The position numbers and the translations under genes were made by a program. A DNA stretch of 64,000 nt, from positions 320,001-384,000 of the forward strand of contig CAWBHS010000072.1 in assembly GCA_963788655.1 (NCBI GenBank). Direction: 5' to 3'. Below the pieces are notes generated by a model that worked only from the letters and a program-made list of their open reading frames with translations, had not been told where the DNA came from and searched no databases. Every line of letters starts with the position of its first letter. Within the stretch, counting starts at the first letter, position 1. The stretch is from an uncultured Verrucomicrobiae bacterium (lineage in GTDB: Bacteria > Verrucomicrobiota > Verrucomicrobiia > Limisphaerales > JAFGQR01). Positions 136 through 59,857 of this stretch are shown here, piece after piece.

Positions 136-193
136 CATCCGGGTTTTTCGAGTCTTGGCGCCAGCCGGCGCGCAAGACCCGTCGAGCGTTGCC

Positions 194-394
194 TTCCCCC
201 TCACCCCGACCCTCTCCCTTGGGGAGAGGGAGCCCGTTCGCCGCGGACGGGAGCCCGCGGATGGCACTCAGACCTTCGAGACCGCTTTGCACAAAAGTCG
301 AAGGGGCGGTCAATGCCACGGGCAGGTTCATATCAAATCGCAGCACCGCTGGCTGTTCCCTCTCCCTGAGGGAGAGGGTTAGGGTGAGGGGGAA
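194..394. repeat. About 200-bp MITE/REPIN-like element, copy 1
   Basis: Terminal inverted repeats TTCCCCCTCACCC...GGGTGAGGGGGAA, each arm with a CCCTCTCCC-n-GGGAGAGGG hairpin; interior colinear with 4154-4352. Confidence 0.85.
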
Positions 395-492
395 CCAGGC
401 TCCCTTGGTCCAAATGGCCGTCAGGAAATTCAGCGGGTGGTCAAGCCTGGCGCGAAGCCGAAGGCTTCCCCCAACCAGCTCAGTAACAATCG

Positions 493-3400
493 ATGAACAT
501 GGATAGTAGTTCGGGCAAAGTCGCAACAAAGGAATCGAGCGAGACGCAGACGGCTGCACACAATAGTCGCTCGAAAAACACCGCCACCATCACCACCCAG
601 AGCGGGCTCGATTTGCAGGTGGAGACGTTGGCCCGCCAGGGCCAACTCGAAGTTTCGCTCCACGCGCCTGCCGGCAAACGTTGCGTTTTGCACTGGGGCG
701 TTCGGCGCCAAATGCAGCAGGACTGGGCCGCGCCGCCGCAGTCGGTGTGGCCGCCGGACACGCAGCCAATGGGAGTGACCGCGGTGCAAACACCGTTCGC
801 CAAACAGAATGGCCAGCTCGGCATCGACATTCGCATGGACCTTGCTGCGGACTACGCCTCGCTGGATTTTGTGATCTTCTTTCCGGACGAAAAGCGCTGG
901 GACAACAACGGCGGCCGCAATTATCAGGTGGCTCTGACCAAGTCCAAACCGACGACCGATCCGCAGGCAGTCTTGCGGGCACGGTTGGGCGAAGAGGAAT
1001 TGCTTTTTGAACGCGCGTTCGATCTTGGCAACCAAGCAAAACTCGCGGTGGCCGTGGTCCGCACCGAGCAACAATATCGCTTCGAGGCGCTCACCAATCT
1101 CGGCGGACCGTTGCTGTTGCATTGGGGCATTGCGCGTCGGTCCCCGCGCGAGTGGCTGCTGCCGCCGGAGTCGATGCGCAATCACGTGACGACTGGCTTT
1201 GACGATCACGCGGTGCAAACACCCTTCGAAACGCAGGAAGGTTTCAACGCGCTCGCGCTCGCCGTCGCCGAGTCCGATGCGCCCCTGGGTTTGAATTTCG
1301 TGCTCAAACAAAACACGCCCGAGGGACGCTGGCTCAAGCATCGCGGCGGCAATTTCTACGTGCCGATCCACCAGGCCGCGACACAAGCCGGCGGCCAGGG
1401 TCTGGGCGAACTGGCTGGCCTGGCGGATGAAATCATCCAGGCCGAGACGGGACACAATTCCTGGACGTTGATGCATCGGTTCAATCTTTGTTACGACCTA
1501 TTGGACCGGGTCCAGCACAGTGTTGAAGGACAGGCGCTGCTTTATGTATGGCTGCGGTTCTCGGCCATTCGCCAGTTAACCTGGCAACGCAATTACAACA
1601 CCCAGCCACGCGAATTGGCGCACGCGCAAGACCGCCTGACGCAGAAGTTGGCCAACGTCTTTCGCAGCGAACCGGAAACGCGCCCGTTGGTTCGTTTGGC
1701 CCTGGCCACGGTGGGCCGCGGCGGTGACGGACAACGGGTGCGCGACGAAATCCTGCACATCATGCACCGGCACAACATCAAGGAAGTGACCGGCCATTTT
1801 CTCGAAGAATGGCACCAGAAGCTGCACAACAACACCACGCCCGACGACGTGGTGATTTGCGAAGCCTATCTCGAATTCCTTTACAGCAACGGCAATCGCG
1901 ACCGCTTCTATCAGACCCTGGAAAACGGCGGCGTGACCAAGCAGCGGTTGGAGAGCTTCGAACGGCCCATCCGGACCGAGCCGCAATTCGCCGGTCACCT
2001 CAAAGACGCGCTGATTCCTGACTTCCAGAATTTCTTGCGCGTGCTCAAATCCGTTCATTCCGGAACCGATTTCGAAACCGCCGTCAATGCCGCGCGCGGC
2101 CAGTTGGATGGCGACCTGCAAGGACTGCTGCACTACCTGGGCGAACACCGCAACGATCCGCCCGAGGGCGTGGTGAACTTGGTGAACCAAATCACCGACG
2201 CGCGGCGCCGCTTGTCCAATCGGCTGAACCAGGACGGCGGCTTGCGCGAATTACTCTACCTCGATCTGGCCCTGGAACAACTGCTGCGTGTGTCCGTGGA
2301 ACGGCATGTCCACTTGCGCTTCAATGGCGATCAGTTGGTCGATCTCATTGCCCGCGCGCTGGAGAACGTAACGCTGACTTACGAAGATCCCGAACTGGCT
2401 GCCTGTGCGCGTCACTGGGAACGATTGCAAGGCCTGCCACGCTTCAATGCCGATTGGGCGTTGCACGCCAAGTCCGTCGGTGACCGCATCGCGCGCGCTT
2501 TGACCACTTGGATTGATCGTTTCTATCAACTGCTCCAACCCAAGGCCGAATATCTCGGTGCCGGATTCCAGGCCGAGCCGTGGACGATCACGCTCTTCAG
2601 CGAAGAAGTGGTGCGCGGAAGCAGCCTGGGCTTCGTGGTGTCCATGCTGTTGCACCGCCTGGACCCGCTCTTGCGCAAGGCCGCCAACATCGGCGCCTGG
2701 CGCATCATCAGCCGCGGCGGCGGGGGCGGTCAAATTGAAGTGGTGGACAAGTTGGGCTCGATTCAAAACCAGCGCTTTGACAAACCCACCGTCGTTGTGA
2801 CGGACAAAGTGATGGGCGACGAAGAACTGCCCGACGGGGTCACCGCAGTCATCGCTCCGGACGTGACCGATATCGTGTCGCACGTGGCGGTGCGGGCGCG
2901 CAACTCGAATGTCCTGTTTGCATCCTGCCATGATCCGGAAATGTTGGCGCACTTGAAGTCGCTTCGCGGGCATCATGTTCATCTGACGGTCAATCCGGCC
3001 GGCGACGTGATCGTGCAGGAAACCGAGGCGGATGCGCCGGCGGCTGCGATCGAGTCGGTTCAGGAACGAATTTCACTCACGCCACGACAGTTCACGAAAT
3101 ACGCCATTACGCATGAAGAATTCCGCGAGGAACTCGTGGGGGGCAAGTCATGTCACCAGGCAGAACTGCGCGGCAAGTTGTCCGATTGGATTCATCTCCC
3201 GGCCTCGGCGGCGATTCCCTTCGGCGTCTTTGAAAAGGTATTGGGGTTACCCGCCAACCAGGAGTTGGCCAGGCGTTGCCAGGAGTTAACTCGACAAGCG
3301 GAAACCGGCAACACCGAAGCACTGGCCGACCTGCGGCGAACAGTTCTCCAATTGACCGCCCCCGACGAATTGCCGGACACCTTGCGCCAAGGCATGACCA

Positions 3401-4068
3401 AGGCCGGTCTGGATTGGCCTGCGGATTGGGACAAGACCTGGCGTTGCATCAAACAGGTCTGGGCTTCGAAGTGGAATGACCGCGCGTTCCTCAGCCGCAA
3501 GAAACTCGGCATCTCGCACGACCAACTGTTCATGGCGGTGCTCATCCAGTCGGTGGTGCCGGCGGATTATGCGTTCGTGGTCCATACGGTGAATCCGTCC
3601 ACCGGCAACGCCAACGAACTCTTCGCCGAAATCGTGCTGGGCCTTGGCGAAACCCTGGTCGGCAATTATCCCGGACGCGCGTTGAGTTTTGTGGTGGACA
3701 AAACGTCCGGCGCGCAGACGTTGCTGTCGTATCCCGGCAAAAGTATTGGCCTCTACGGCAGTGGCTTGATTTTCCGTTCTGACTCCAACGGTGAAGATCT
3801 GGCGGGATTCGCCGGCGCCGGCCTCTACGAAAGCGTCTTGCTTCAACCACCCCGCGTCGTGGAATTGGATTACACCGAAGAGCCGCTGGTGTGGGACGAG
3901 CGTTTCCGCCAGGACCTGCTCCAGACGATTGCGAAGATCGGGTTGGAAGTCGAAAAAGCCTTTGGCGCGCCGCAGGACATTGAAGGCGCGGTAGCGCGAG
4001 GCAAATACTTCGTTGTGCAAACGCGGCCGCAGGTGGGACTGGAGTCAACGACCGGCAGCAAGGGCTAA
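493..4068 (+). CDS. Alpha-glucan water dikinase (plant GWD1/R1-like) with tandem N-terminal CBM45-like domains
   Basis: Two LHWG..W..PP..AVQTPF modules; GWD-type motifs WLRFSAIRQLTWQRNYN, GQRVRDEIL and EEWHQKLHNNTTPDDVVICEAYL; phospho-His motif DIVSHVAVRARN (His codon 2881); C-terminal nucleotide-binding domain (FRSDSNGEDLAGFAGAGLYES, QDIEG, VVQTRPQ); no signal peptide. Confidence 0.92.
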   Translation: MNMDSSSGKVATKESSETQTAAHNSRSKNTATITTQSGLDLQVETLARQGQLEVSLHAPAGKRCVLHWGVRRQMQQDWAAPPQSVWPPDTQPMGVTAVQTPFAKQNGQLGIDIRMDLAADYASLDFVIFFPDEKRWDNNGGRNYQVALTKSKPTTDPQAVLRARLGEEELLFERAFDLGNQAKLAVAVVRTEQQYRFEALTNLGGPLLLHWGIARRSPREWLLPPESMRNHVTTGFDDHAVQTPFETQEGFNALALAVAESDAPLGLNFVLKQNTPEGRWLKHRGGNFYVPIHQAATQAGGQGLGELAGLADEIIQAETGHNSWTLMHRFNLCYDLLDRVQHSVEGQALLYVWLRFSAIRQLTWQRNYNTQPRELAHAQDRLTQKLANVFRSEPETRPLVRLALATVGRGGDGQRVRDEILHIMHRHNIKEVTGHFLEEWHQKLHNNTTPDDVVICEAYLEFLYSNGNRDRFYQTLENGGVTKQRLESFERPIRTEPQFAGHLKDALIPDFQNFLRVLKSVHSGTDFETAVNAARGQLDGDLQGLLHYLGEHRNDPPEGVVNLVNQITDARRRLSNRLNQDGGLRELLYLDLALEQLLRVSVERHVHLRFNGDQLVDLIARALENVTLTYEDPELAACARHWERLQGLPRFNADWALHAKSVGDRIARALTTWIDRFYQLLQPKAEYLGAGFQAEPWTITLFSEEVVRGSSLGFVVSMLLHRLDPLLRKAANIGAWRIISRGGGGGQIEVVDKLGSIQNQRFDKPTVVVTDKVMGDEELPDGVTAVIAPDVTDIVSHVAVRARNSNVLFASCHDPEMLAHLKSLRGHHVHLTVNPAGDVIVQETEADAPAAAIESVQERISLTPRQFTKYAITHEEFREELVGGKSCHQAELRGKLSDWIHLPASAAIPFGVFEKVLGLPANQELARRCQELTRQAETGNTEALADLRRTVLQLTAPDELPDTLRQGMTKAGLDWPADWDKTWRCIKQVWASKWNDRAFLSRKKLGISHDQLFMAVLIQSVVPADYAFVVHTVNPSTGNANELFAEIVLGLGETLVGNYPGRALSFVVDKTSGAQTLLSYPGKSIGLYGSGLIFRSDSNGEDLAGFAGAGLYESVLLQPPRVVELDYTEEPLVWDERFRQDLLQTIAKIGLEVEKAFGAPQDIEGAVARGKYFVVQTRPQVGLESTTGSKG

Positions 4069-4153
4069 GGCTTCAGGTGATGAAACGGACAGTTGCAACT
4101 CAGTCTTTCGGCGTGGCACACGTTGCGCCCAGGCTGGGTTGTCGAACGCGTTG

Positions 4154-4352
4154 TTCCCCCTCACCCCAGCCCTCTCCCTTGGGGAGAGGGAGCCCGTTTG
4201 GCCCGCCTCGAAAACAACGAATGGCACTCCGACCGTCGATGCCGCTTCGCGCGAAAGTCGAATGGGCGGTCAATGCCACGGACCAGCTCGAATCAAAGAG
4301 CAGTGCCTTCGGCTGTTCCCTCTCCCTGGGGAGAGGGTCAGGGTGAGGGGAA
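4154..4352. repeat. About 200-bp MITE/REPIN-like element, copy 2
   Basis: Same terminal hairpins and related interior (atggcactc, aaagtcgaa, ggcggtcaatgccacgg, ggctgttccctctccc) as 194-394. Confidence 0.85.
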
Positions 4353-4380
4353 GCACAACAACTAAACTCCCCGCATTTTC

Positions 4381-7300
4381 ATGATCCCCATCGGCAACCA
4401 GACTTCATTCTCCGCGGCCACGCCCACCGTGCCGTTTGATTACGCCCGCGCCAATGACTTTGATGCGTTTGAATGGTTTCCCGACAAGAAACCCGACGGC
4501 GCCGGTTGGGACGAAAGCGACTTGGATGAATCGCGGCGCCGGCACCTGGCCGAACTGGCGCGGGCGCAAAACATGCGCGTGTCCGTTCACGCCCGTTGGC
4601 AAGCCGATCCGCTGCGACCTGGTGCCCAACCGCTACTACTGAGGGATCTTGGACTGGCCCGCGATTTGGGCGCCGTGCTGGTCAATATTCACTTCAACCA
4701 CGAGCAAGGAGTCGAAGCATACGTTCAAGCGGTGATGCCGTTTGTTCGCCAAGTTGGTGAGGTGGGACTACAGCTTGCCATCGAGAATACCCCGCATCAT
4801 GCGCCGGAACAGTTTAACGAGTTGTTTGCGTGCTTGCAGGCGCTCGGCCGTGAAACCGTTCAGCACGTGGGAATGTGTTTTGATCTCGGCCACGCCAACC
4901 TGTGCGCGGCAACCCGTAACGATTATTTGCAGTTCCTCGACCGACTCGATCCGCGCGTGCCAATCATCCATTTGCATTTGCACGAGAATTGGGGTGATGC
5001 TGACAGCCATTTGCCGCTGTTCACCGGTCCCGCGGGGCGGAATGATGCAGGCATTCGCGGCCTGCTGGAACGGTTGCGTCAGCGTCAATATGCCGGCTCG
5101 ATCATCCTCGAACAATGGCCCCAGCCGCCTTCGCTGCTGAACCACGCGCGCGACCGGTTGCTTGACTTGCTTAATTCCTGTAGCAACGGGCGTGAGTCCG
5201 CTCATACTTCTCGTGCATCTGACGTAGCGGCGTCTCGTGAGAGCGCCGCTGACTTGAGCGAAACAAATTTGCAGCGCTCTCACGAGACGCCGCTACGCTC
5301 AGAGGTGGACGATTTCCAGGGCAAACTGGTCGCCGCTGATCAACAGCGCCGCAGTTGGCGGGAGAAGCTGGATTTCGTGCAGGGCCTGTTCACGGACGAC
5401 GCGACACCGCTCACGTCGGAGCAATTGGTCGATATTGCCATCTACCTTCGTTTCCTGGGCACCGGTGAGATCGTATGCGTCGAGGACGGACGGCACTTCC
5501 GTCCGGCCCACCATGCGCGCATGGCCCTGGAGATTCAGCGACGGTTGGCCGAACTGACCACGCCCGACACGGCGTTTATCGCGCGCAAGATTTATCCCTG
5601 GTTGCCCTCCTCGGCCCGGAGCTTTCAGCGCGCTGAGCCACTGACGCGGATTCGCGACATCGCGCATCGCAACGACATTCCCCAGGACCTGAAACGCGAA
5701 ATCAAGCACACCCTCCAAAACAAGCTGCATCGCTGTGCGGGGCCCGAAGACCTGGTGACCTCCACGAAACTGTTGGAACGAATCACCGCGCCGGCGGCCG
5801 ATTACGCGTCGGACTTTGTCGAGCAATTCAAAATTTTCCATGAAGAACTGAAAGAGTTTTTCAACGCCCAATCCTTGGACGAACGGCTGGATGCGCTGTT
5901 GCCCCACGTCGGCGCCAAGGAAACCGAATTGATCCAGCGGTTTCACAAACAGAAAACCAGCACAGCCCAGCCGGCGCTACGGGACGCCTTCAAGTCGCTG
6001 ACCGAATTGCGCTACTGTTTCCTGGAGGGCGCCGCCAAGTGCAAGCCGGAAGAAAAGCAGGAGTTCCTGCTGGCGGACATTGGGCTCGAAGATTTTGCCT
6101 TCGTCCTGTTGAGCAAAATCTTCAATGTCTTCGACGTTGCCAGGACCAAGGCCAAATGGGAACCGCTGCTGGAAACGCTGCGGTTGACCATCACCAACCT
6201 CGCCCTGAGCCGCGTCCAGCCTGAGGAATGCGACGCGCTGGGAGCCGAACTGCGGACTTGGAGCGCTGAACTGAATCCAAAAGACCGCGAACAACTGTTA
6301 CGTTTGAAAGCCACTGCGGACCGTTGTCGGCGTCTGGCGGAAGCTTACAGCGACCGGATTGCCGCGCTGTTCTTTCGGCGGGCCCGGGATCTGGGTCGCG
6401 CGCTGGAGGTGCCCGCGCATGCCATCCAGGTGTACTGCGACTCCGAAATCCGCGGCCATATCGTTTTCCAACTGGCGAAGCTGGTTTCCAGTCTCTTGCG
6501 TCGCGTCCGCGAGCAACTCGAATTGCCCGCCTGGGATGTGCTGGTTGCTGGGCAGGCGAGGGGCCGGTTGCGGATCACCAACCTGCTGGACGATGTGGGC
6601 CAGGATTTGCGCGAGCCCACCGTGGTGATTTTGAGTAACGCGGAAGGCGATGAAGAAATCCCGCAAAGCGTCACCGGCATTGTGCTGGGACACGGTATTC
6701 CGCATTTGTCGCATCTCGGAGTGCGCGCCCGTCAGGCCGGGGTGGTGCTGGTCACTTGCGAGGAGCCGGAAACGTTCAAGCAACTGGAGTGCTTCGATGG
6801 CCAATCGGTCTTGCTGTCGGCGACTCCCGAAAACGTAGAATGCACACCGGCCAAAAGCTCCGCCGCTACGACAAGCAGGGCTCCGGGCAGACCAGTGCTA
6901 GTTCCCGAAGTGCGCCTCGATCCCAAACGGCCTTGGCTGCCCCTGGAACAGGTCACTCCGGAATCCGGCGGGGGCAAAGCAAACGGCGCCCGGCGTTTGG
7001 CCGAATTGGCCCGCCGGAATGATGCCGGATTCAACACTCCCACCGGCGGCGTGATTCCTTTTGGCGTCATGGAAGCGGCGTTGCGCGCCAGGCCAGAGGT
7101 GGAAGCGGAATATGGCAAGCTACTCCAACAGGCCACCGGGAAGTCGGCTGACACGTTGACCGCGACAGCGGAACGGTTGCGCAGTTTGATCCAGCAGTTC
7201 GAGGTGCCCGAAGCGATTGCCAAAGCGATTGCCCAGACATTCAAGCCAGACGCCCGACTCATCGTCCGATCGAGCGCCAATTGCGAGGACTTGCCGGAAA

Positions 7301-7903
7301 TGGCCGGCGCCGGCCTCTATGAATCCGTCGCGAATGTGGCGCCCGCGGACGTAGCTGACGCCGTGCGGACGGTGTGGGCGTCGCTCTGGACCCGACGGGC
7401 CGCCTTAAGCCGTCAGCAAGCCGGTATTCCGCACGAACAGGCGCATATCGCAGTGCTCATCCAGGAGTTGCTCACGCCGGACTGCTCGTTTGTCCTGCAC
7501 ACCGTCAATCCGATCAATCACGACGCCGATGAAGTCTATGCCGAACTGGCGATTGGGCTGGGAGAAACACTCGCGTCGGCGGCTATTCGCGGCAATCCGT
7601 ATCGATTGATTTGCCCCAAAAGCTCCAAGGCAGTCACCACACTGGCCTTCGCGAACTTCAGCGAGTCGCTCTGGCCTGATCCCGCCGGCGGTCTGCAACG
7701 CAAAACGGTGGACTATTCGCGCGTCGAGTTGTCGCGAAACGCCGAAGCTCGCCAGCAACTCGGAAGACGCCTGGCGGCCATTGGCCGGTTGGTCGAAGCA
7801 GAATTGAAATCCCCCCAGGACATCGAAGGCGCGGTAGTTGGCGGCAGACATTTACCTCGTGCAAGCACGTCCACAACAGGGGCTGGGTAGCTATGAGCGC
7901 TAA
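4381..7903 (+). CDS. Fusion of AP-endonuclease-2/xylose-isomerase-like TIM barrel and phosphoglucan water dikinase (PWD/GWD3-like); frameshift near 7845
   Basis: N-terminal ~265 aa has AIENT, CFDLGHAN, HLHLHEN..DSHLP, IILE; PWD-type motifs SWREKL, EDGRHFRPAHHA, PLTRIRDIAHRNDIPQDLKREIKHTLQNKLHRCAGPEDL; phospho-His PHLSHLGVRARQ (His codon 6712); VRSSANCEDL..MAGAGLYES. The ORF track stops at 7890 but a shifted frame gives the expected IYLVQARPQ ending at TAA 7901-7903. Confidence 0.88.
5223..5297. repeat. Intragenic in-frame REPIN-like inverted repeat (GTAG-type REP pair)
   Basis: Perfect 24-bp arms CGTAGCGGCGTCTCGTGAGAGCGC (5223-5246) and its reverse complement (5274-5297); another GTAG-led half element at about 5180-5203. 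Confidence 0.8.
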
Positions 7904-7937
7904 CTCAGGCATGTTACCTATGGATACAGAAGGCGAT

Positions 7938-8053
7938 GTCGGACCGGCGTCCCGCGTGTCTCGAATTTCCCAACGACGCTCGACGTATCGCGGAACTGGC
8001 TGCAACGGTTGGGAGCCGCTGGTCATTCGGGACAGCCGGGACGGCTGTCCTAC
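7938..8053. repeat. 116-bp REPIN-like element, copy 1
   Basis: GTCGGACCGGCGTCCCGCGTGTC...GACAGCCGGGACGGCTGTCCTAC; same length and related ends as 29515-29630. Confidence 0.7.
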
Positions 8054-8088
8054 GGGCGTGTTCGCTCATTTGGATTTCCAATAGATTC

Positions 8089-9273
8089 ATGCGCCCCTCG
8101 CTTCCCCAGCATCCGCCAACCCTCGGGTTGTTCGAGAAACGGATCGACGGTGACGATTGCCTGATGGATTTGGCCCGGCTGCGTTTTCAGCAGGCTGGTA
8201 TGGGCACGGAAATGCACGCCGGCACACCCGCAGAATTGGATTGGGTCATGCAATGGCGTCCCTCGCCAGCGACACCTGTCGTGGTTCACTTGCCGCGGCA
8301 CTTCGATCTGACCGACGAGCACACGCGAGCCCAAGTTCAGGGAATGGCTGCTTACTCTGCCGGCCGGATTCATGGATTCGTGCTGCACGACGGCGCCGAT
8401 ATGGCGGTGCGCGCCGCAGACTATCACCGCGCGGCTCAGGAAATGGAATCGCGACTGGCGCGCATCCAGCAATGCCCGCTGCTGTTCATCGAATACGCGG
8501 CGGGCTTGGAACCGGATCTTTTCGCCGGTTTCTTTTCCTCCATCCGCAACTTGTCCCGTTTGAGCGCCTGCATCGACATCGGCCATGTAGGCATTCGGCA
8601 GGCGCGGAAAGCGTTTGCGCAGGTGCATCCCGGCGAAGATGTATGCGCGCTGAAGTCCAATCCTTCCCGCCTGCCGCAACTCATGCCGGACGTGGAAGCC
8701 GCAGTGCGAACGGCTTTACCAACCGTGCTGCACCTGATCGAAACGCTCGGTGCGCTGGGTAAACCGATTCACTTCCATTTGCACGATGGCCACCCACTTT
8801 CCACCTTCAGCCCGTTCGGCGTCTCGGATCACTTGAGCTTTTTCCAGGAGATGCCGCTGCCCTTCGATTGCCATGACCAGCAATCGTCGCCGTTGATGTT
8901 TGGTCCGAACGGCCTTTCCCGAATTGTCGCCAAAGCGATGGAGGCCATCGGTCGCGAACGGGTTTCGTTCACATTGGAAATTCATCCGACCTTCGAACGC
9001 CTGGCGTTGGGCGACGCGGCCAACCTCTTTGAGCATTGGCGTGACCGGACCAACGCCGAGATGATGAACCACTGGCTCGCGGTGCTCAGTCGAAACCATG
9101 AACTACTGCTGGCGGCAATCAGCAAGCGGGCGGCCGATGCGTTGGTGGCGCACTTGATACCTCGCCCGACGCCGTTGGTTTTGAACTCGCCCAGGCGACA
9201 GATAATGGCTCCGGTGATTCCTTGCGGATTCGCAACAATTTTGGAATCGCGTGCGATCAGTCCGCCGTTCTGA
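8089..9273 (+). CDS. AP-endonuclease-2/xylose-isomerase-like TIM-barrel metalloprotein of unknown function
   Basis: FIEY, CIDIGHVG, HFHLHDGH, SDHLSF and TLEIH metal-ligand pattern; start set at ATG 8089 because the upstream ORF part is REP sequence. Confidence 0.7.
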   Translation: MRPSLPQHPPTLGLFEKRIDGDDCLMDLARLRFQQAGMGTEMHAGTPAELDWVMQWRPSPATPVVVHLPRHFDLTDEHTRAQVQGMAAYSAGRIHGFVLHDGADMAVRAADYHRAAQEMESRLARIQQCPLLFIEYAAGLEPDLFAGFFSSIRNLSRLSACIDIGHVGIRQARKAFAQVHPGEDVCALKSNPSRLPQLMPDVEAAVRTALPTVLHLIETLGALGKPIHFHLHDGHPLSTFSPFGVSDHLSFFQEMPLPFDCHDQQSSPLMFGPNGLSRIVAKAMEAIGRERVSFTLEIHPTFERLALGDAANLFEHWRDRTNAEMMNHWLAVLSRNHELLLAAISKRAADALVAHLIPRPTPLVLNSPRRQIMAPVIPCGFATILESRAISPPF

Positions 9274-11945: not shown

Positions 11946-13204
11946 TCATTCCGGCAGCGGCTGGCCTTTGGTTTCCTTTGCGAACCAAATCAGAAGCAGG
12001 CCCAGCAGATACACCAACGTGATGACCGCACCGGCCCTTGCGTAGCTGCCTTCAAACCGGGACACAAGCTGCCCTTGGGTCAGGGCGCCCACGGCGGCAA
12101 ACATCCGGCCGGAGTTGTAACACACCCCTTGTCCCGTCGCCCGCACGCGCGTGGGAAACAATTCCGGCAAGTAAAGCGGCAGCCAGCCATAGAAAGCGGC
12201 CGTAAACGCGCCGACCAAGAATGCCATTACCACGAACTGGGTTCCATAGGCATTGACCGCGCGAAACAGGTAGCCGCACAGCACCAGTGAGCCCAGGCAT
12301 AAACCAAAATACGCCGGGCGCCGTCCAAACCGGCCGCCGAATAAGGGCCCGACAAAGGAACCAATGATGGCCCCGCCGCCAATGGCAAACAAGGTGACCG
12401 CCTTGGCGGCCGGTTGCTGGCCATGGGTCAACTGGTCCGCCCAGAGCGGCAGCCATTGCACCGAACCCCAGGTGCCGATCAGGGCAATCGAAGCAAAAGC
12501 AATGGCGAGCAACGTGGTCTTGACCAATCGCACGGCGAGAAGATTTCCTGCAACGGTCGGCTGGCGCCGCGTTGGACGGCTTGCTTCCATTTTTCCGACT
12601 CCGGGACAAAGAATTGAATCACGAGCGCCAGCACCGCCGGCGCGGCCCCGGCCACCATCACCCAACGCCAGGATTCGCGGGTCACCTGGAAACTCATTCC
12701 CACGATGGCGATCAGCACGAAACCCACGTTCGACGCCACGCCAATCACTCCGGCCAGCAGCGGGCTTTTTTCGCGGGGCCAGCTTTCCATGACCAACGCG
12801 ACCCCCAGCGACCATTCGCCCCCCATCCCGAAGGCGGCGAGGAACCGGAGCGCGCCCAAGTGCCACGGTTGCGCCGCGAAAAAACAGAGGCCAGTAAAGA
12901 CCGAATAGGTGAGGATGCTCAGCACCATCGAGCGCACCCGGCCCAAGCGGTCGCCCAGCCAGCCAAAGGCCAGACCGCCCAACGCCGCCCCGACCAGAAA
13001 CAACGCCGTGATGTGCCCCATCCATAATCCGATGAACTGGTCCGGCGCGGCGGCAGCCTCGGCCGGCATCATCGATTGCAGCGCAGGACGGGCCACCAGC
13101 GGGAAGATGCCCATCTCCAGCCCGTCAAACATCCAGCCCAGGAACGCCGCCAACAACACCAGCCAGCGACCGCGGTTCGAGACATTTGCCGTGGCAGTCG
13201 TCAT
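11946..13204 (-). CDS. MFS transporter (frameshift near 12530)
   Basis: GWMFDG, GWLGDRLGRVR, GMGGEW in ORF 12479..13204; RFGRRP and LPELFPTRVRATGQG in ORF 11946..13025. Confidence 0.85.
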
Positions 13205-16936: not shown

Positions 16937-17127
16937 ACACGAAGAACTCTAAACTAAAGGGTTGAGCTAGAAAAGGACCGAAATTCAGCCGTTATTTGCG
17001 TTTCAAACGCTTGATTCTGTCAAACGGTGTCAATGATGAACCATGGTTCACTTCCCTATATGCTGACCATGATTTAATGGCGGCATCACCCCACGTGACG
17101 ACGTTTGTGCGGTGGAATCCGGTTACC

Positions 17128-18570
17128 CTAACCTTTGACTTCATGCGCTTCAAATTCGCGAACCATTTCCGGGAAATGGCAGTTGGCGCAGACGGCGTTC
17201 GAGTTGTCGCAGAAATCACGCACAATTTGTAGCAAGCCCTGCTGGCAAGCCGCGCCCTGGAAGTGGCGCCGACGCACGCTGCCGAACAGTCGTTGTCGGG
17301 CCAGGCGCAACACCGCGTTGTCCTCGGCCGCCGGCCAGGCCAGGTAACGCGCCTCGAGGGTTTGGGCACCGTCTCGTTTCGGCCTTCATTGGCGCGGCTC
17401 CACAACCAGGGCAGGACGACGTTCAAGGCCAGGTCGGTGGCGCGCGTGGCGCCGAGCATGGGTTGCGCCTTGGGCAGGCAGGGCGAACGCAGCGTCCAGT
17501 GATGGGACCAAAACGCGTCCGAACCCACTTGAAACTCCGCCAGCAACGAGGGTACCAGTTCCGAATCCTTCCGGTCGGTCAAACCCCATTTCTCCAATCG
17601 GTCGGGAAGCGTGTTGGCGCTCCACCAGTGGGCGGCCAGGGCCAGACGGCGCTGCGGGTGATTGGCCGGACGCAAGCCACTGAAACGCCACGCCGATTTG
17701 GGCAGGATCAGGTGGGAAAAGCCGGCGCGCTCCCGCCACCAGACATCCCAGAGTTGGCGGACGTAGGTGGAAGCGCGTTGGCTGCCGGTCAGTTCCGCGG
17801 GGAGCAGGCCGCCAACTCCCAGCAATCGGGCCTGCAAGCGTGTCGGATCGAGGGCGGTTTTCGGTGGACACAAGTTGATCGCGCAGTTCGGCCAGACGTT
17901 GCATCGGCCAGGAATTGTTTTTATAGCCCAACGCGTGGAACAGCCCTTCCCACAGGGCCTGGTCCCAGCCTGCCTGCCGGGCTCGCGCCGCAAATCGGGC
18001 AGCTTTACTTTGCAGCCGGACCAGCGCGGCTTGGTGCAGCAATTCGGTCACCCGATCTTCAGTGAGTTCCCGTAGCGGAGCGGCGCATTGGCCAACCAGC
18101 GCGGACGGAAACGGCTGACTGGCTTCGCTGGTCAGCCAGTAGGACAGTTCCCCAATGGTTGTGTCGAGGCACGTTTTGAGCGAGAGCGTTGGGAGGGGGC
18201 CGGAATCCTTGCCTTCCCAGACCACGTGCAAGGCAACTTTTCCAAAGGCTGGATTCTTGTCGTGGTGATGCGCCGTCCAGCCGCTTGAGTGAAGATCGAC
18301 CTCCACGTCGCCGGAGCAGGGCGGTTCGTTTTCAAACTGGAGCACGGCGGCGCGGAAATCGGGTCCGGCCTCGCGATTCAGAAAACCGGGATGCAGCACC
18401 TGGAGTTGGCGACCGTCCAAGGTCGTGAGTTGATCGCGACAAAGGCGCTGGTGAAACCAAACGGCCTGGAGCAGGCGTTCCGGCGGCGTTTCCTGGTCTT
18501 CCCGAAACAAGGGAACCACGCCGCAGCGCAACCGCCAGGCGGCATAAAAATTGGACTCCAACCCAGACAT
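17128..18570 (-). CDS. DUF2851 family protein (frameshifts near 17860 and 17360)
   Basis: ERLLQAVW, HPGFLNREAGPDF, GDVEVD...W..HHHD.NPAF..V.LHVVW, LGYKNN, WRFSGLRPANHPQRRL, QQGLLQI...FC......C..C across three frames. Confidence 0.8.
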
Positions 18571-18607
18571 GCCATTGCTTTTCGCGGTTGTTTCCCCCAA
18601 AGTCAAG
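18571..18607. repeat. 37-bp direct repeat, left copy
   Basis: GCCATTGCTTTTCGCGGTTGTTTCCCCCAAAGTCAAG, identical to 24481-24517; abuts the DUF2851 start codon. Confidence 0.95.
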
Positions 18608-19410: not shown

Positions 19411-22400
19411 TCACTTTGTTACAAATGGGTCACCAACAGGCTGAAAACGGTCCGTACGGCTAGATACCCAGGCACACAGTCCGAAGCTCCGGCCTCCCTC
19501 CCATAAGCCGAAAAATACGTAAGGGTTGCTAACACCAGTTGAAAAATCCTCGCTGATAAATGGCTCGTACGTATGAGTGATGGCTCCCACGGGGGTGTAG
19601 ACGTAGTTCGAGCCACCTAACGCGTTATGCGCGAACCAATTGTGGTAGCTGCCCTGATAATCAATGGGAATCCATTGTCCATTGTACGATTCGATGGTTT
19701 CGATTACGTACCAAGAGCTGCTATCATGAAATCGAATTCCGCCGTAACCGTAATTGTTTGTTGACCAGTAAGTGCCCAAATCTCCATGAAAGCCCCAGGA
19801 GAGGTATCCTACAACGTTTGTGCAATCGAAGAAATGGTCGTTAAAGTTAGTGCTGTACACGTAGTGAACAGAATCGCTATCTGCTCCATATGCCAACACG
19901 CCATTCTTGGCATAAAGGCCTGGAACTATGCTCTCCCACGATCCAATACCCTTATTGTAGTTTCGTTCGTCGTCAAAATAGAAATCGCTGTTACCGTATC
20001 CTCCCACTTTCGGACTTATGCGGATTCGGCCCGACGAATAGTTGCTGCCAAAAAACGCAAGTTTGTCCACATAGGCAAAGCAATCCGCCGGCGTCCGCAT
20101 GTTAATATGCGTTACGAAAGGCCTTCTGCTTGGGTAAATCGGACCGAAGGATGAAACTCGAACTCGGTTGCCCACCCAGATGGGTGATAACGCACTCCGG
20201 CGGGCAAGTGCTGGCCGGCACTCCGTAAAACAAGACAATGAAATTGGGCCGTTTGGTGGGATTGTTCGTCAGCCATTCGAGCACCGGCGTGATCAAAGTG
20301 TTTGTGGTTTCCATTAAGTCCACGTAACGCTCCGCATTCGTTTCTGCGCCGTCAATGCCCAGCACGTTGGCGTCGGCCACCAGCGGGCGGTTGGTGCGGT
20401 AGTAGTTCAGGACGGCTACGCTATCCGGACAGTTGGTGTTACAGATTAACAACAAATCTTGGGACGGTTTGACCGGATAATTGAGCAGTCCATTGTAAGC
20501 CAGGGTCAGACAATGAAAACCGCCCGCCACCACCATTTTGGTATCGCCCAGTTGCTCGGCGGGGATGTCGGTCTGGCCGAATTGGTCCCGGCCCCAGGCG
20601 ACCGCGCTGCCGTCGTTGCGGAGGGCAGCGCTGAACATGTATCCGGCGGTCACTTGCATCACGTTATCGAGTTCGGCAGGAACGTCGGTTTCGCCCCAAC
20701 CGCTGTCAAGGCCCAGTCCCGTCACGGTGCCATCCGCTTTCAACGCCAGCGCATGCGTGTACGCCGCGGCAATCTGGACCACATTGGTTAGGTCCTCGGG
20801 AATGGTGATTGCCCCAAAACCGCCGGTGCCCCAGGCACGCACCGTGCCGTTGCTTAAGAGGGCGTAACTCAGTCCGTCTCCCGCGGCGATAGCCGTCACG
20901 TTGGTCACGTCCTCCGGAACGTCGATGGCCCCGTAGCTGTTGTCACCCCAGCCCAAAATTGTTCCGTCCTGGCGCAAGGCCAGGCTGTGGTAGGAACCAG
21001 CGGCCACGGCGGCAATGTTCGTCGCGCTGGACGGGACATTGGCTTCCCCGTAGGTGTTGGCTCCCCAAGCCACGACCGACCCGTCGTGCTTGAGCGCGAG
21101 GTTGTGGGTAGCGCCGGCAGCGATGGCGACGACATCCGTCAATCCTGCGGGAACATTGGTCTGGCCCCAAAAGTTGTCCCCCCAGGCCAGGACGGTTTCG
21201 TTCTCGCGCAAGCCCAGGCTGTGCAAACCGCCGGCGGCAACCGCCACGAAATTGGTTTCGGCTGGATCCACAAAGCTTTGGCCATACTCGTCATCTCCCC
21301 AACCATAGACGACGCCGGGCAGCACGATATGAATGGTCCAAGTGCCGAAATTGGTCGAGCCGGCGGCATTACTCACGTCCACGCTGTATTCACTGTTTGC
21401 GATGTCTGGGCTGGTCACCTTCGGATTCAATATCGAACACGCGATTCGTTGCGTCCGGAATGGCTTCCCCGTTGCGGTTCCATTGGTATGCGAAGGGAAA
21501 GGAATTCGTGTCGGCAGACGTGGCTACGACGCTCAAATTGGTGTACATCGGTGAACCAATAGGTGCCCGGTACCGGGGGCGTAGCTTCAACGAATTGAGG
21601 TGGACGCAAGAGGGTAAAGGTCACGACATCACTCGTAACCGAGCCGGCCCCGTTAAACACGATAACCTGGTAGTCGCCTTCGTCACTCGACTGAACGTTT
21701 GTCAGGGAAAAGGCGGCATTGGTTGCATCCGGAATGTCCACTTCGTCAAATTGCCATTGATACCGCAAGCCCGGACCAACCGCTTACTATCCTGAAGGTC
21801 ACATCCCAGCCTTCCGGAGCCACTTGGTTTGTAGGTTGCGTCACAATCAGCGGCGTTAGGCGGCCGCCGCGTGCCGCCAAGCCATGAAGGACTCCAGAGC
21901 CGATTGCCACCAGGTTGCTGTGCATGAAGGCCGGCGGTTCGAGATCGCCCCAAGTAACCAACGTGCCGTCACTCCGCAGGGCGATGCTGTGGAAACCTCC
22001 CGCCGCAATCGCGACAACGTTCGAAAGGTCTTCCGGCACGATGGATTGGCCATAGGAAAAGAGCCAGTCCTCCCCGTTACCGGCACCCCTGGCGGTTACA
22101 GTGCCATCATTTCTGAGTGCCAGGGTGTGATACGCTCCGGCCGCGACGGCGGTCACATTGCTCAGGTCCGGAGGCACGTTGGTCACATTCCAATCCAGGG
22201 AGGCAAATCCGTATCCCCAGGCGCGCACGGTGCCGTCATTCAGCAAGGCCACGCTATGGGCCCAACCGGCGGCAACTGCTTGCACCCCACTCAAACCCGG
22301 CGGCACGGTGTTGTACGGGGCGTCCTCGTAATAACCCCACGTGCGGACCGTTCCGTCGGCCAGGAGCACAATGTCGTGATCGCCTCCGGCGGCAACGCCA

Positions 22401-24043
22401 CAGACATTCGTCAAATCCTCGGGCAACGATAAATCGAAGAAGTCGCCGTCCCACCATTTTCCCCACGTCTCAACGGTTCCATCCGCTTTGACCGCCACGC
22501 TGTGATATGGACCCGCCGCGAGGTGAATCCCATTTGTGAGGTCCATCGGCATGTTGGTCTGGCTATGAGTGCCGCTCCCCCAAACCACCATCGTGCCGTC
22601 ACTTTGCACAACCAAGGAATGCTCGAAGCCGCCAGCCGAGTCCACGGCATTGCGCACGCCGAGCGGCACGTCGCACTGGCCATAAGCGTTGTCGCCCCAC
22701 GCCACGACCATCGTATCGTGCGGATTCGATATGGCTTGGTATTCCTGCAAATTGGTAAGCCAGTCGCCGTCTGGATCGTCACTCGCATCGTCCAGCAAAG
22801 GATTGAGGGCATGACCGATTTCCCAGCCATCCGGCATTTCGTCGCCGTCCGTGTCATCGTTTGCGATGTCCGTTTTGCTCACAAGCTGCTCGAACGCATC
22901 GGAGAGTTCGTCGTCATCACGGTCTTGCGGGGTGCCCAACACATAGAAAGCAAAGGTTTCCAACTGATTCGTGTATTGGTAGGTGCTGCACGTGGGACCT
23001 CGTTCCAACCAAGTCCACTGCGAATTGGTGATGCCATTGCCGGACAAGCTCGAAGCGGCGAATACGTCGTACAGCAACCCATTGGTGCCGCCTTGAATGT
23101 CAAAGGTTACCGTCCAGCCCTGGTTGGCATCCAGCACGGACCAAATGTTCGTAATGTAAACCGGGACATTGGTGACGCACTCGGTTGTGCCGCCGAGCAA
23201 GCGCATCATTGGCAAATCGTTAGCCGCAGCCGCAGCCTTGGGTAGGGCCTGCCATTCGGCCTCGCTCAGTGGCCCCAATGCTGCCTGCGCCTGGTGCATG
23301 ACGTAGTAAAAGGCCACCGCCTCCTCGGTGAGCGGTTGACCAAAGACGTATAACTCCTCCAGATCGCACTCCGCGCTCACGTTGCCCGACCAAGAGCTGC
23401 CAATCACGAGCGCGGCGGCGTTTGGAGGTATTGCGGCTGTCCCCTTGCCTTGAGCCGCTAGTTCGCCATCAACGAACAAGGAGGTTCCGCTCGGCCCGAA
23501 GTTCAGCCCCAGACAATGAGCCGTGGGCAACCAGGCAATCTCAGTGTGGGGCAACTCACTGGGCGCCGTGTCGCCCGGAGCGAACAGGGCCAAAGTCGAA
23601 CCGTCCGGTGAAACTTGCAGCGACCAAACAACGATTGCTTCCTTGCCATCAATCGCTGTGAGTTCAATTAACGGCGCATACTGGCCTGGGCCGGTGCCCC
23701 CCAGCGACCGGCTGGCCCAGTAAGGTGTCAGCCAGAAGCGGACCGATGAATCCAAGTGACTTGCCACATTGGTACGGCCTTCGGTGTTAATCCCTGGCAC
23801 AATGAGTGGCTTCACGGTTCCAGAGCGTTCAATAGCATACCCCGACCATGATTCCCGCAGAATGCCGATGTTGACAGCGACCAATTCGGCAGTTGTGGCA
23901 TCGGAAATTGTCGTCCAATCAAACGTTTCGTGGAACAATACCGGGGCGGTTAATTCGGGAAACGGCGGCCAAGGAGGTCGCGGCCGAGCCAATCCTACAG
24001 GGGCCAAAAATGACCCACTTGCCAGCAAGAGCAAGCAAACCAA
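19411..24043 (-). CDS. Large secreted protein: LamG-like, DxDxDG repeats, RCC1/BLIP-II repeats, Ig, TIGR03790-like C-terminus (frameshifted across four ORFs)
   Basis: ORFs 21746..24043, 21427..21768, 21390..21590, 20102..21430 and 19411..20238 join as one architecture; many AIAAG..HSLAL..DGTV.AWG repeats; C-terminus LLLICNTNCPDSVAVLNYY ... GAITHTYEP ... VGDPF; true start may be near 24087-24096. Confidence 0.7.
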
Positions 24044-36300: not shown

Positions 36301-39300
36301 TTATTCCAAGTGGCGCTTTTGCAGTTCAAGTATTTCTTGTCGCAGGTGGGCAAGGTGTTGGGCTTGCTCAGCATTGCCCGATGACGTGTTCTGCAATCGG
36401 TCCAAATGAAACAATGCAGCGTTCCATTGTTGATGATCCATGCAGGCGTGAACTTGATTCTCGTGCCACGTCGCGAGTTCGGTTGGCGAAACCACAAATG
36501 CATCCGGGCAGCGGACGCGTAAGGACTCCCATCTTTGGTGGAGGGAGACTCGGCCGCCTGGCGCATTAGCTTCATTGCTGGTTGCAAGGGTGATACCGGT
36601 TTCCAGATCCGCCAGTTGGCCTAACTCGTCCGCTGTCTCATGGGCGAAAGGCAGTTTCAGGATGGCGGCTCCCCCGTGGTTATTAGCAGTGAGCAAGTAG
36701 CGGTCGTCCCCTGCGAATTGAACGCGTAACGCTAAAAAACCAATCGGCACCGGTGGCGTGATTGGTCGGCTCGTTGCTATGTCCCAAATCCGGGCCGTTT
36801 GGTGGCCGCACACCGTTACCAGCCATTGGCCGTTCTCGCTGAACGCCGCCCCGTAAACTTTCGATTTATGTTGCAACGGCATGGTGATGGGTTGTTTGGT
36901 GTCGGCGTCCCATACCATTGCTGTGAAGTCTTCCCCGGTGGTTACGAGGCGTCGCCCGTCGTCACTGAAGGCAACGTAGAGCACTCCGTCTTTGTGCGGC
37001 AGCGGCGGCCCAACGGATTGTCCATTACGGGTGTCCCAGACCTGTGCGACGCACTTGTTCAAGCCGTTATCCTGCGTGCCGGTAACCACCTGCTGTCCAT
37101 CGGGCCGAAATTGAACACACCACACTTCCTTGGAATGAAGGAGCGCCGGACAATGGAGCGCTCCGGAGTCAACCTCCCAAAGTTGGACCGAACGGCCGCA
37201 AACCGTCAGCAAAATGTGGCTGTCGGGACTGAACACGGCGTTGCTGATCGCGGCGGCCGTGTGTATCGGCGGCAAAGAAGGCTGTCCGGTACGGGCATCG
37301 TAAAGCTGCGCGGTCTGGTCGCTATACACCGCAACGTGTTGGCCATCCTCACTGAGGAGCACGCCCGTGCCAGCGGCTGCAATTGGGATCGGGGGCGAGA
37401 GTTTTTCTCCGGTCCTCACGTTCCCAACTTGAACGAGGTTTGACGCACCATTCATTCCCGAAGCGATTGAATATCGGGCAAGGATATAGCTGCCGTTTCG
37501 CGAGAGACTTGTCGTTTGCACCGGCTGAGGCAAATCAAGCGTCGGTTGGAAGGTGATCCCCGTGTTGACCTCCAGAATCTGCACTGTGTTGGACTGCCAC
37601 GTTAGCAGTTGGCCACTTGGCGAAATCGACGCGGGATGGATTTCCCGTCGCGCAGTGGCGCAGCCTGCCAAATCCCACACCCGGACGGTGCCGTCAGCGC
37701 AGGCCGACACGATCCGATGACTGTCCGGGTCGAAGGCCGCGTGGATCACTCCGCCGGAGTGTTTTAACATCGGGTGCCCGCGAACCGGTTGGCGGGAATA
37801 GGTATCCCATACCCGCACGGTTTTGTCAAAGCTCGAGGTGACGATCCAGCGGCCGTCTGGACTGTAATCGACGCTGGTGATGCCATCGTCGTGTTTCAGC
37901 GGCGGCGGCAATTCTTCACCGCTTTCCACTTCCCAAATCCGCGCGTTACGATCGTACGACGCGGTCACAATAAACCGGTCATCCGGACTGAAGGCTGCCC
38001 CGTAAACCCAGTTGGGATGTCGTAGGGGAGGGGCGGCCAGGTTGCCAGTGGTGGCGTCCCAGATCAAGGCAGTGTGATCGATGCTACAGGTCACAATCCG
38101 TCGTCCGTCATGGCTGAAGGCCGCATAGAGAATGAGGTCGGTGTGTTTGCGTAACTCACGCGCCAGCGTTCCGGTGTGAGCATTCCAGAGGTATGCGAGG
38201 TGATTGTTGCAAGCCGTCACCACCCATCGGTCGTCCGGGCTGAAGTGGGCGTTCTTGACTCGCGCGGGATGGGGTAATTGCCGGATGCGTTCGCGCGTCT
38301 GAGCATTCCAAATTGTCGCGGTTTTGTCCCAACCAGCCGTCACGATCCAAGTGCCGTCATGGCTAAACGAGGCGGTTTCCAGTCCGGGACCCGCCCCAAA
38401 CGGTGGGCCAACCGGTTGCCCCGAAGCCAGGTTGCAGATACGGGCTCCTCGGCGTTGCATGCTAATCAAGACGCGCGTCCCATCGGGGCTGAATTCAACA
38501 TCGTTGGCCGCCTCGTCCATGACCCACAAATGGGTCAGTTTGGGACAGGCGTCCAACACCGTGCCCAGCCGCAGCCGATGGGCAGGATCGTGTAGGCCGG
38601 GCTCCAGTTGCCAGGCCGCCGCAAAGGCCGGCAGCGAACTCAGAAAATCGCCGGCGTCCACGTCATGGATGCCATCAGCAATCATGCCGCCAATCTCCCG
38701 CTGTCGCATTTCGGCCGCGTGCTGGATTTCTCGATTGACAGCAACCCCCACAGCGAGCGCCACGCATCCCGCCACGGCGGCACCGATGCCAAGTCGCTTG
38801 GCCTTGGCCAGACGCTGCTCCAACCAATGCAGCCGTTTGATGGACTTGCCCTTGGACAACGCAAACAGGTCGGCGTGCAGATCGTGCGCGGTGGCGTAGC
38901 GCTCGGCCCGCTCCGGTTGGCAGGCCTTAATGATGATCTCATTAAGCTCAAGGCATTCCTCCGCATCCGGCCAAGTATTCAGCGCTCGCGGCAGCTCGGG
39001 GAATTCCTGCCGGTCCAAGCCCGTACTCAGTTCATAGAGCACTTTGCCCAGACTGTACACGTCCGCCTGAAACGTACCGGGGCCTTCCGGCGGAATGAAA
39101 CCCGTCGTGCCTACGTAAGTACGCGCCTCTTTAAGCGTGCGGACCAAACCGATGTCCGCCAACTTGGGCGTTCCGCGCACAAAGATGATGTTGGACGGCT
39201 TGATGTCACGATGCACCAATTCATGCCGGTGCAGATGATCAATGGCTTCGCTCAATCGCAAGCCCAGCGCGACACACTCGTTGGCCGGCAACCGGCCGCG

Positions 39301-39723: not shown

Positions 39724-39926
39724 TGAGTCAGGCCGTCAGGATTTTACCTATCAGGCCACTCACCCAATCCGCCCGACCGTCTGCCCATGTTGCGTCACCA
39801 AGCGGCTCAGTTGGCCGACTGATTGTCAGCAGTTGGGATGCACCTCTTTCTACGTTCTCCTGTCGCCTGATGGCAATTCTTTTTTTGTCCCAAACCTCTG
39901 GAACATGCTGATCCCCATCTCCGGTG

Positions 39927-42482: not shown

Positions 42483-42652
42483 CAAGCTTCAGAGCGCAAG
42501 CGAGTTAGATACTCGAATTGCCGCGCTGAAGCCCAGCAGCGCAGAGGGCGCCGCTTAGCTCATCGGGGATTCAGCCGAGGCATGAACAAACCGCCTCCCC
42601 CTAGTCAAATCAGTTTCAATGGTTCGTTCAATAAATGAGAACCGGCAGTGGC

Positions 42653-44732: not shown

Positions 44733-44966
44733 CCAAACACCCGCTTGGGAGAAATTTGCCGTTGTGACGTTTCATAAAGAAGTATTAATCAAAGAGCCAG
44801 CCGAAGCCCACGGCGGTTGCGGGAACCCCGTTATCGTTAATTTCAGGTGGGATTTTTGCTGGAGTTTTTTCAGAACTTTTTCGTCTATCATTCATCTAAA
44901 AAACATGTTAGAAGACTCGCTATCACCTGCGGTTGTAGTGTTTGCAGGAAAGGTCCCCGAATGAGT

Positions 44967-59409: not shown

Positions 59410-59857
59410 GGGCAATCGAAACCCCAGACCTTGGCCGCCAGCCATCGTAGAGCATTTCGATCCGGCAAGCGGTGTGCTACTGCTGTTGTTTGAAGCGGCC
59501 CCTGTGCATGTTTTAAGGCGGCACGATCAAAGCATGGGCCGTTGCGGTCCACTCCAAAATGCCGGTGTGCGAGGCGCACGCTAAACGTTGGTGAGACTCC
59601 CGCCTGGATTTCGGAACGTCCAGCAAGTATTGGATTCCGCGTGGGCTTCCGCCACTTTCGTATTACTCGCTCGCTACCAAAGATGCCCTTAGCGGCGGTA
59701 GGTGCGGATTACGGCTTTCACACGTTAAAAGCCTGGGCAAAACTGAATTATACATTCGACGAATTGGGGGAATGCTGGTAATCTGTAACCGAATTATTCA
59801 GGGATGTTTGCACCGAATTTAGTGGCCACCTTGTGCGTCAAGAGAAGTAACCTAAGT

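Follow-up and report, generated by a model that had tools for sequence, protein, structure and literature searches.

The 64,000-nucleotide window analysed here (assembly GCA_963788655.1, contig CAWBHS010000072.1, positions 320,001 to 384,000) originates from an uncultured Verrucomicrobiae bacterium of the order Limisphaerales and harbors close to its start three co-oriented, intron-free open reading frames (ORFs), denoted A, B, and C (Table 1). ORFs A and B encode homologues of the plant starch-phosphorylating enzymes, an alpha-glucan, water dikinase (GWD) and a PWD-type dikinase, respectively. ORF B begins with an endonuclease-IV-like barrel (TIM1), and ORF C codes for a second barrel of the same superfamily (TIM2). 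A co-oriented glgA gene, scoring above its family cut-off, is situated ~540 bases upstream of ORF A, outside the window (L081:14480-15949), which yields the gene order glgA, GWD, (TIM1)PWD, TIM2. A first-pass annotation of this DNA had described the two dikinase genes and proposed a glucan phosphorylation system; both barrels, including the third gene as part of the system, were absent from it.

ORF A follows the domain order of plant GWD1 (potato R1/StGWD1, EC 2.7.9.4; PDB 9HA9, 9QVI; PMC13553574), consisting of two CBM45-like domains (residues ~30-292), a central glucan-binding domain (~301-732), a phosphohistidine domain, and a C-terminal ATP domain. Pfam detects PF23166 (CBM45-like) twice in the N-terminal part (E 2e-45), and the central domain of potato GWD1 (PDB 9HA9) matches residues 301-732 with an E-value of 5e-94. 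The phosphohistidine domain of GWDs (PF22973) and the ATP domain (PF01326) lie above their cut-offs in both ORF A and ORF B, in agreement with the intact domains claimed in the first-pass annotation. The motifs it quoted were likewise all recovered at their places: in ORF A, EEWHQKLHNNTTPDD starts at residue 438 and SHVAVRARN contains His797, and in ORF B, RIRDIAHRNDIP is found at residue 423, EIKHTLQNKLHRCAGPEDL at 440, and HLSHLGVRARQ contains His778. E704/E705/R708 of ORF A show the same spacing as E900/E901/R904 of potato GWD1, the residues of the E-E-x-x-R helix facing the catalytic His that have been proposed for transfer, and the acidic residue 21 positions ahead of the His is retained. 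Unlike plant GWD1, with which it shares a clade, ORF A is compact (1191 aa), is devoid of the plant linker (DUF7067) and of a transit peptide, is an operon gene located after glgA, and always co-occurs with TIM1. It also does not possess the CFATC redox pair of land-plant GWD1, a motif that we take to be regulatory and not catalytic. ORF A reads LFASC at this position; the first Cys was present in 0/120 of the closest homologues, and CFATC was seen in three plant-type proteins. The N-termini of both dikinases are polar, as judged by inspection.

The dikinase core of ORF B shares with plant and algal PWD/GWD3 (EC 2.7.9.5) the motifs QNKLHRxAGPED and HLSHLGVRARQ, the His and ATP domains, and a clade that comprises CBM20-bearing PWDs. 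The N-terminus differs: since an endonuclease-IV-like barrel (PF01261, residues 19-251) replaces CBM20 and PF00686 was not detected there by Pfam, ORF B is a variant architecture and not a canonical PWD. Bacterial PWDs further differ from the plant and algal enzymes by a second barrel, which is encoded downstream of the gene or fused to it C-terminally. A one-base frameshift at ~7846 alters the last ~15 residues of ORF B as read; the C-terminus conserved among homologues, DIYLVQARPQQG, lies in the next frame and ends with a TAA stop at 7901-7903. A close strain has one independent contig that lacks this base, and frameshifts split several further genes of the assembly in like manner; the frameshift is therefore probably an assembly error.

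Both barrels are predicted to adopt the (beta/alpha)8 fold of the AP endonuclease 2 superfamily, as do Nfo, CbiR (PMC7733943), MJ1311 (PDB 3WQO), and the ketose 3-epimerases. For TIM1 (AlphaFold2 (AF2) pLDDT 95) the top Foldseek matches are MJ1311, AP endonucleases, and epimerases; for TIM2 (pLDDT 90) structure matches (Foldseek, VIA) are endonuclease IV and epimerases, with Z ~19. An alignment of 32 homologues revealed H70, H104, E135, D168, H171, H197, H199, H201, E202, D208, H210, and E244 as invariant in TIM1, with H70, H104, E135, D168, H171, H199, D208, H210, and E244 kept in 32/32 sequences. The invariant set of TIM2 (H65, H98, E133, D161, H164, H228, D231, D245, H246, E295, and H297, numbered from position 8095) is retained in 119/119 homologues. 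The ATG at 8089 was assigned as start of ORF C from its homologues, the longest reading frame beginning at 7936. No Pfam match and no significant PDB sequence match were obtained for ORF C, and its single NCBIfam match, CbiR, is weak (E 0.002). TIM1 and TIM2 are distant relatives of each other (HHalign 95%, 16% identity).

The phosphodiesterase CbiR is the best NCBIfam match of both barrels, at 38 and 18 bits versus a cut-off of 105, and the nfo family model matches neither of them; the genome holds a separate nfo gene. With scores far under both cut-offs, TIM1 and TIM2 differ from Nfo and CbiR as families of their own, tied to glucan dikinases. The His/Glu/Asp set of both barrels nonetheless aligns with that of the genome’s own endonuclease IV (Nfo), the D-x-H pair doing so ambiguously. 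Anchored on this Nfo, the aligned residues are presumably those that bind three metals in endonuclease IV. Among the 37 PF01261 stretches of the genome, in which several rows are gapped at these sites, only Nfo and TIM1 have the first as well as the second position occupied by His. Members of the superfamily carry one to three metals and include phosphodiesterases, isomerases, and epimerases, according to the accessible text of PMC7733943. Judged from these residues, a phosphoester-cleaving role is favoured for the barrels, and TIM1 is a candidate metal-dependent phosphoglucan phosphoesterase or phosphate reader.

Table 1. Features of the dikinase locus (window coordinates).
Feature	Position	Strand	Basis or remarks
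ORF A, GWD1-type alpha-glucan, water dikinase homologue	493..4068	+	1191 aa; Pfam, PDB 9HA9, tree
ORF B	4381..7890 as read	+	1169 aa as read
TIM1, endonuclease-IV-like barrel (AP endonuclease 2 superfamily) at the N-terminus of ORF B	4381..5190	+	PF01261, alignment, AF2, Foldseek
PWD-type dikinase core of ORF B, His778	5305..7903	+	Pfam, PWD clade, homologue C-termini
ORF C = TIM2, second AP-endonuclease-2-type barrel	8089..9273	+	alignment, AF2, Foldseek
Host palindromic repeat between A and B	4141..4354		99 genome places
Further copy of the 4141-4354 repeat, between glgA and A	181..395		95 genome places
In-frame palindromic repeat (inverted repeat I6), linker between TIM1 and PWD core	5223..5297		29 places, 19 contigs
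Short host repeat between B and the likely start of ORF C	8028..8064		108 places, 51 contigs

At least eight bacterial phyla contain the module. The scan that revealed them covered GTDB genomes, and the best 80 loci of its 132 relatives were analysed; they belong to Verrucomicrobiota, Thermodesulfobacteriota, Nitrospirota, anammox Planctomycetota, Gammaproteobacteria, Acidobacteriota, Myxococcota, Fibrobacterota, and Omnitrophota. The neighbourhood survey suggested earlier revealed a module conserved across dozens of bacterial genomes. Two of the Atlas clusters nearest to TIM2 have Actinomycetota as their commonest labelled phylum, a hint of further carriers. Within the order the distribution is patchy, with a dikinase in 20 of 251 genomes (at most three candidates scored per genome). 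The GWD central region was found in 0/300 other genomes of a phylum-wide sample searched with a single-protein query, the module is missing from one other searched genome of the genus, and it gave no match on plasmids. At least one glycogen gene accompanies the module in 46/80 loci and in 32 of the 48 loci that span at least 15 kb, glgA and branching enzymes (GH13 and GH57) being frequent neighbours. In the genome studied here, glgE, a treS/maltokinase-like gene, and malQ lie within ~16 kb upstream, and homologues of glgB, glgC, glgP, GH57, and GH13 genes are encoded in addition. A CBM48-esterase gene is also located upstream of glgA. DUF4912 and a GH57 branching enzyme occur together beside the module in 10/80 loci (L024, L027, L030, L035, L037, L038, L051, L053, L064, and L078); this recurrence suggests that DUF4912 belongs to glucan metabolism.

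Each barrel keeps company with one dikinase type. TIM1 directly follows GWD in 51 of the 72 loci with enough downstream DNA (8 of the 80 were dropped as too short). PWD is present in 29/80 loci and TIM2 in 24/80; all 24 TIM2 loci have PWD, and the five PWD loci without TIM2 all end at a contig edge. Among the genomes of the order, TIM1 occurs in 19/251, always directly behind the dikinase and in 19 of the 20 dikinase genomes, and TIM2 in 7/251, always directly behind a second, PWD-type copy (the type was determined from the sequence in G000, G378, G384, and G476); the 231 order genomes without dikinase yielded neither barrel. In G378 the pairs are split, with GWD-TIM1 on one contig and a barrel-less PWD plus TIM2 on another. 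Where GWD is not adjacent to TIM1, the genome carries TIM1 elsewhere in 21/21 cases: in 9 of them TIM1 heads a second dikinase and TIM2 follows, and in the other 12 TIM1 stands alone and TIM2 was not found. A PWD without GWD was never seen in the genomes surveyed. TIM1 accompanies GWD even when unlinked and TIM2 accompanies PWD, which is a pattern and not a statistic, as the genomes are related and incomplete. One genome (G562, that of locus L056) contains the dikinase in two copies and TIM1 twice as a stand-alone gene; TIM2 was not found in it.

Gene fusions were also encountered. Among the best 150 representatives of 50% clusters, TIM1 is N-terminal in 36 and TIM2 C-terminal in 10, and CBM20 is present in 28 of the 30 barrel-less PWD-types scanned. 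A triple fusion TIM1-PWD-TIM2 of ~1500 aa is encoded in two Thermodesulfovibrionales genomes (L045:3277-7785 and L047:13065-17534). Two loci encode a fusion of TIM2 with a GH13 (debranching/glucanotransferase-like) domain (L059:7156-9498 and L071:16493-18841). Relatives of this GH13 protein are found in 27/80 loci and also elsewhere in the present genome (C9), beside GH57.

Phylogenies of the shared core were calculated with FastTree (178 rows, after 6 short or double rows had been dropped) and with IQ-TREE (59, 58, and 26 rows). Their sampling is biased, as the search used a bacterial profile and the best 150 of 1718 matches at E 1e-30 or better. ORF A always groups with GWD and ORF B always with PWD, with support of 100/100 on both sides in the 26-row IQ-TREE; the profile and tree comparison proposed in the first-pass annotation therefore revealed no grouping with PEP synthase (PEPS) or PPDK. 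On sequence grounds, A and B are true relatives of the plant starch-phosphorylating enzymes. The GWD clade of ORF A includes a potato-like GWD1 (P0200) and ciliate GWDs, the clade of P0257 contains Stentor and Blepharisma records, and the members of a divergent metagenome clade have mostly eukaryote-type neighbours. ORF B groups with CBM20-PWDs, whose eukaryotic label derives from architecture, a transit-peptide-like N-terminus, and Atlas neighbours, not from named records. Because A falls with GWD and B with PWD, each side including eukaryotic members, the GWD/PWD duplication is, as read from these trees, older than the split between bacterial and eukaryotic copies, and each of the two genes passed between the domains.

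GWD is regarded as a hallmark of eukaryotes that store starch, and the first-pass annotation had considered the dikinases as known chiefly from such organisms. This statement needs to be softened, since one sentence in a 2018 figure legend (Fig. 9 of PMC6260743) states that some bacteria could have acquired GWD by lateral transfer. A 2026 review (PMC13666283), in its accessible text, describes prokaryotes as lacking known glucan phosphorylation machinery and asks for the origin of the phosphate in bacterial glycogen. Bacterial GWD homologues were thus noticed in the tree of PMC6260743 as they are here, whereas a bacterial PWD, the operon, the barrels, and a function do not appear in its tree section, and the accessible part of its supplement holds no match. 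The main text of PMC13553574 does not mention bacteria or prokaryotes, and the available portion of 10.64898/2026.09.25.754361 discusses GWD for eukaryotes only. Databases automatically name many homologues 'alpha-glucan, water dikinase', and full-text searches outside subscription journals yielded no account of a bacterial GWD-PWD operon or of the two barrels. The module represents a genuine bacterial variant of the eukaryotic glucan-dikinase system; it is conserved, has apparently not been studied before, and includes two candidate erasers of a new type.

ORFs A and B very likely phosphorylate an alpha-glucan. In plants, GWD phosphorylates C6 and PWD subsequently C3 of the pre-phosphorylated glucan, using a swivelling His domain, and phosphatases must strip the phosphate for the glucan to be fully degraded, as stated in the available sections of PMC13666283, PMC12892837, and PMC13553574. 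The glycogen of E. coli was phosphorylated in vivo by plant GWD, as cited in the accessible text of the review PMC13666283. The adjacent glgA and the recurrence of glycogen genes beside the module lend weight to the link to glucan, and the finding that PWD does not occur without GWD fits the dependence of plant PWD on GWD. Domain anatomy, conservation of catalytic residues, clade membership, gene order, and strict co-occurrence are observed, whereas the substrate, the C6/C3 positions, a phosphatase activity, and the physiological role are inferred. The glgA-GWD-(TIM1)PWD-TIM2 operon is, with modest preference over the other readings taken together, interpreted as a reversible alpha-glucan phosphorylation system in which the barrels act as non-laforin phosphatases. 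The cycle would take place in the cytoplasm on the cell’s own storage alpha-glucan. GWD would grip the glucan via its two CBM45-like domains, phosphorylate itself at His797 from the beta-phosphate of ATP, and pass the phosphate to glucosyl residues, by plant analogy at C6. PWD would then phosphorylate the already phosphorylated glucan via His778, by the same analogy at C3. These phosphates may loosen ordered chains, and the two metal barrels would strip them off, enabling phosphorylase, amylases, and debranching enzymes to complete the degradation. TIM1 is supposed to recognize and remove the phosphate set by GWD and, being fused to PWD, may steer PWD to the GWD product in place of CBM20; TIM2 would remove the phosphate set by PWD.

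For the barrels, an assignment as glucan phosphatases is about evenly balanced. They resemble SEX4, LSF2, and laforin in the proposed role only, the removal of C6 and C3 phosphate with divided labour; fold and chemistry are unrelated, a metal-dependent TIM barrel versus a Cys-dependent dual-specificity phosphatase (DSP). Pfam found no DSP domain in ORFs A-C, and no DSP phosphatase of laforin/SEX4 type scored above cut-off in the genome, which is 86% complete, so that this absence is weak evidence in favour of the barrels as phosphatases. Several points speak against the proposed cycle. The barrel fold fails to separate phosphoesterases from sugar epimerases/isomerases, the structure matches of TIM2 ending in a tie (Z ~19). 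A C6 phosphatase fused to an enzyme requiring C6 phosphate looks self-defeating, unless its action is timed or it serves mainly as a reader. Ordinary soluble glycogen needs no phosphorylation, 34/80 loci have no glycogen gene in view, and the C6/C3 positions are assumed from clade membership. The superfamily holds many epimerases and isomerases, according to the accessible text of PMC7733943, and those of its characterised members which break phosphate bonds are phosphodiesterases and not proven glucan monoesterases.

Alternatively, A and B may be genuine glucan dikinases and the barrels phosphate-reading binding modules or enzymes (phospho-maltooligosaccharide or sugar-phosphate hydrolases, epimerases, or dehydratases) acting on phosphorylated breakdown products, with the phosphate being salvaged and not erased on the polymer. 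This explanation, which we regard as possible but clearly less probable than the reversible cycle, draws on the fold that the barrels share with ketose and sugar-phosphate epimerases, on the position of TIM1 where PWDs otherwise carry CBM20, and on the TIM2-GH13 fusions. A fully invariant multi-metal site is, however, needless for a pure binding module, the two-His pattern of TIM1 and Nfo is seen in none of the genome’s 35 other PF01261 stretches, and one barrel per dikinase suits two product positions. The purpose of the phosphorylation might also be a different one, namely control of soluble glycogen (its branching, chain length, or turnover), phosphate storage, or the modification of short maltodextrins, possibly at positions other than C6/C3. 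We consider this improbable, even though the affinity of branching enzymes, a bacterial one among them, is reduced by glucan phosphate (PMC13011383, in its accessible text), branching enzymes and glgA often neighbour the module, and few prokaryotes are reported to contain starch-like granules (10.64898/2026.09.25.754361, available portion). The same source reports such granules in some Verrucomicrobia, the CBM45 and central domains are specialised for ordered glucans in plants (PMC13553574, available sections), and the gene content keeps the two-step dependence of PWD on GWD.

It is extremely improbable that A and B are ordinary PEPS- or rifampin-phosphotransferase (RPH)-like enzymes or that the locus is chimeric or a eukaryotic contaminant. 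PEPS and RPH families do match the ATP domain, but these NCBIfam matches are confined to it and reach at most 129 bits versus cut-offs of 501-1700, while the GWD central domain is clearly recognizable. An identity as PEPS, PPDK, or RPH was rejected on account of these partial matches below cut-off, the central domain’s presence, and the fully supported GWD and PWD clades. The assembly shows many frameshifts and an estimated contamination of 5.6%, which would leave room for a foreign contig. Against this, the four repeats of Table 1 recur throughout the genome (those at 181-395 and 4141-4354 over 44-45 contigs, all four over 19-51), GC content is even along the window, and the GC content at third codon positions (GC3) of A, B, and C is 0.70-0.73 versus 0.71-0.76 in four other genes. 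As the locus contains host repeats, has neighbour-like GC3, and recurs with unchanged gene order in dozens of independent bacterial genomes, it belongs to the bacterium and is not a eukaryotic contaminant. The earlier assertions that the genes sit among bacterial ones and share repeat families with the rest of the DNA were correct.

The trees give differing hints on the course of transfer. Bacterial GWDs form one clade among eukaryotic clades (support 96-99 in the 59- and 58-row trees), and in the 58-row tree this clade (99) is placed with green-type GWD1 inside the eukaryotic diversity (SH-aLRT 91). This single clade leans towards a transfer from eukaryotes to bacteria. In the 26-row tree a ciliate-type GWD falls among the bacteria (88/99), with a long-branch effect as the likely cause; CBM20-PWDs nest inside the barrel-PWDs in this tree (82/60), a placement that leans towards transfer from bacteria to eukaryotes. 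In approximately unbiased (AU) tests neither monophyly of bacterial PWDs (p 0.233) nor of eukaryotic GWDs (p 0.304) was rejected, and the direction of transfer is not fixed. A GWD-like protein (P0267) that branches below all other GWDs and retains the AGAGLY motif in the PWD/PEPS-type position might hold the key to where the family is rooted; a metagenome scan for its host returned distant relatives only, and most of those checked have eukaryote-type neighbours. A bacterial origin of the GWD/PWD pair is a tentative proposal that we hold to be somewhat less than probable, and the tandem layout of dikinase-barrel, dikinase-barrel would argue for a duplication in bacteria. It is unlikely, taken jointly, that bacteria possess a complete write-erase system with two position-specific metal TIM-barrel phosphatases of a non-laforin class and also were the site of the GWD/PWD duplication, and that starch-storing eukaryotes took over both writers, swapped the barrel for CBM20, and recruited DSP phosphatases.

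Outside the dikinase locus, apparent frameshift splits are found at window positions 11946-13204, 16992-18606, 20102-24043, and 44847-64000, consistent with indel errors of the assembly; the genes concerned encode an MFS transporter, a DUF2851 protein, an RCC1-repeat protein, and large Big_7/LamG/LTD/CotH proteins. Clustered in the last of these regions (44847-64000) are genes for very large proteins that are probably secreted and carry Ig-like (Big_7), LamG, lamin-tail, and CotH kinase domains. At 36301-42485 the gene for a WD40-rich protein adjoins that for a glycosyltransferase with a mannosyltransferase-3 domain (PF11051), which we take to be mostly eukaryotic.

In bacteria of soil and sediment and in anammox, sulfate-reducing, and magnetotactic bacteria, the four-part module provides testable candidates for both halves of a glucan phosphorylation cycle, and it predicts phosphorylated, possibly ordered, storage glucans in its carriers. 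The barrels are candidates for a new class of glucan phosphatases with separate enzymes for C6 and C3, and the compact single-gene dikinases may suit structural work and starch engineering. The module also reopens the question of the origin of the eukaryotic dikinases.

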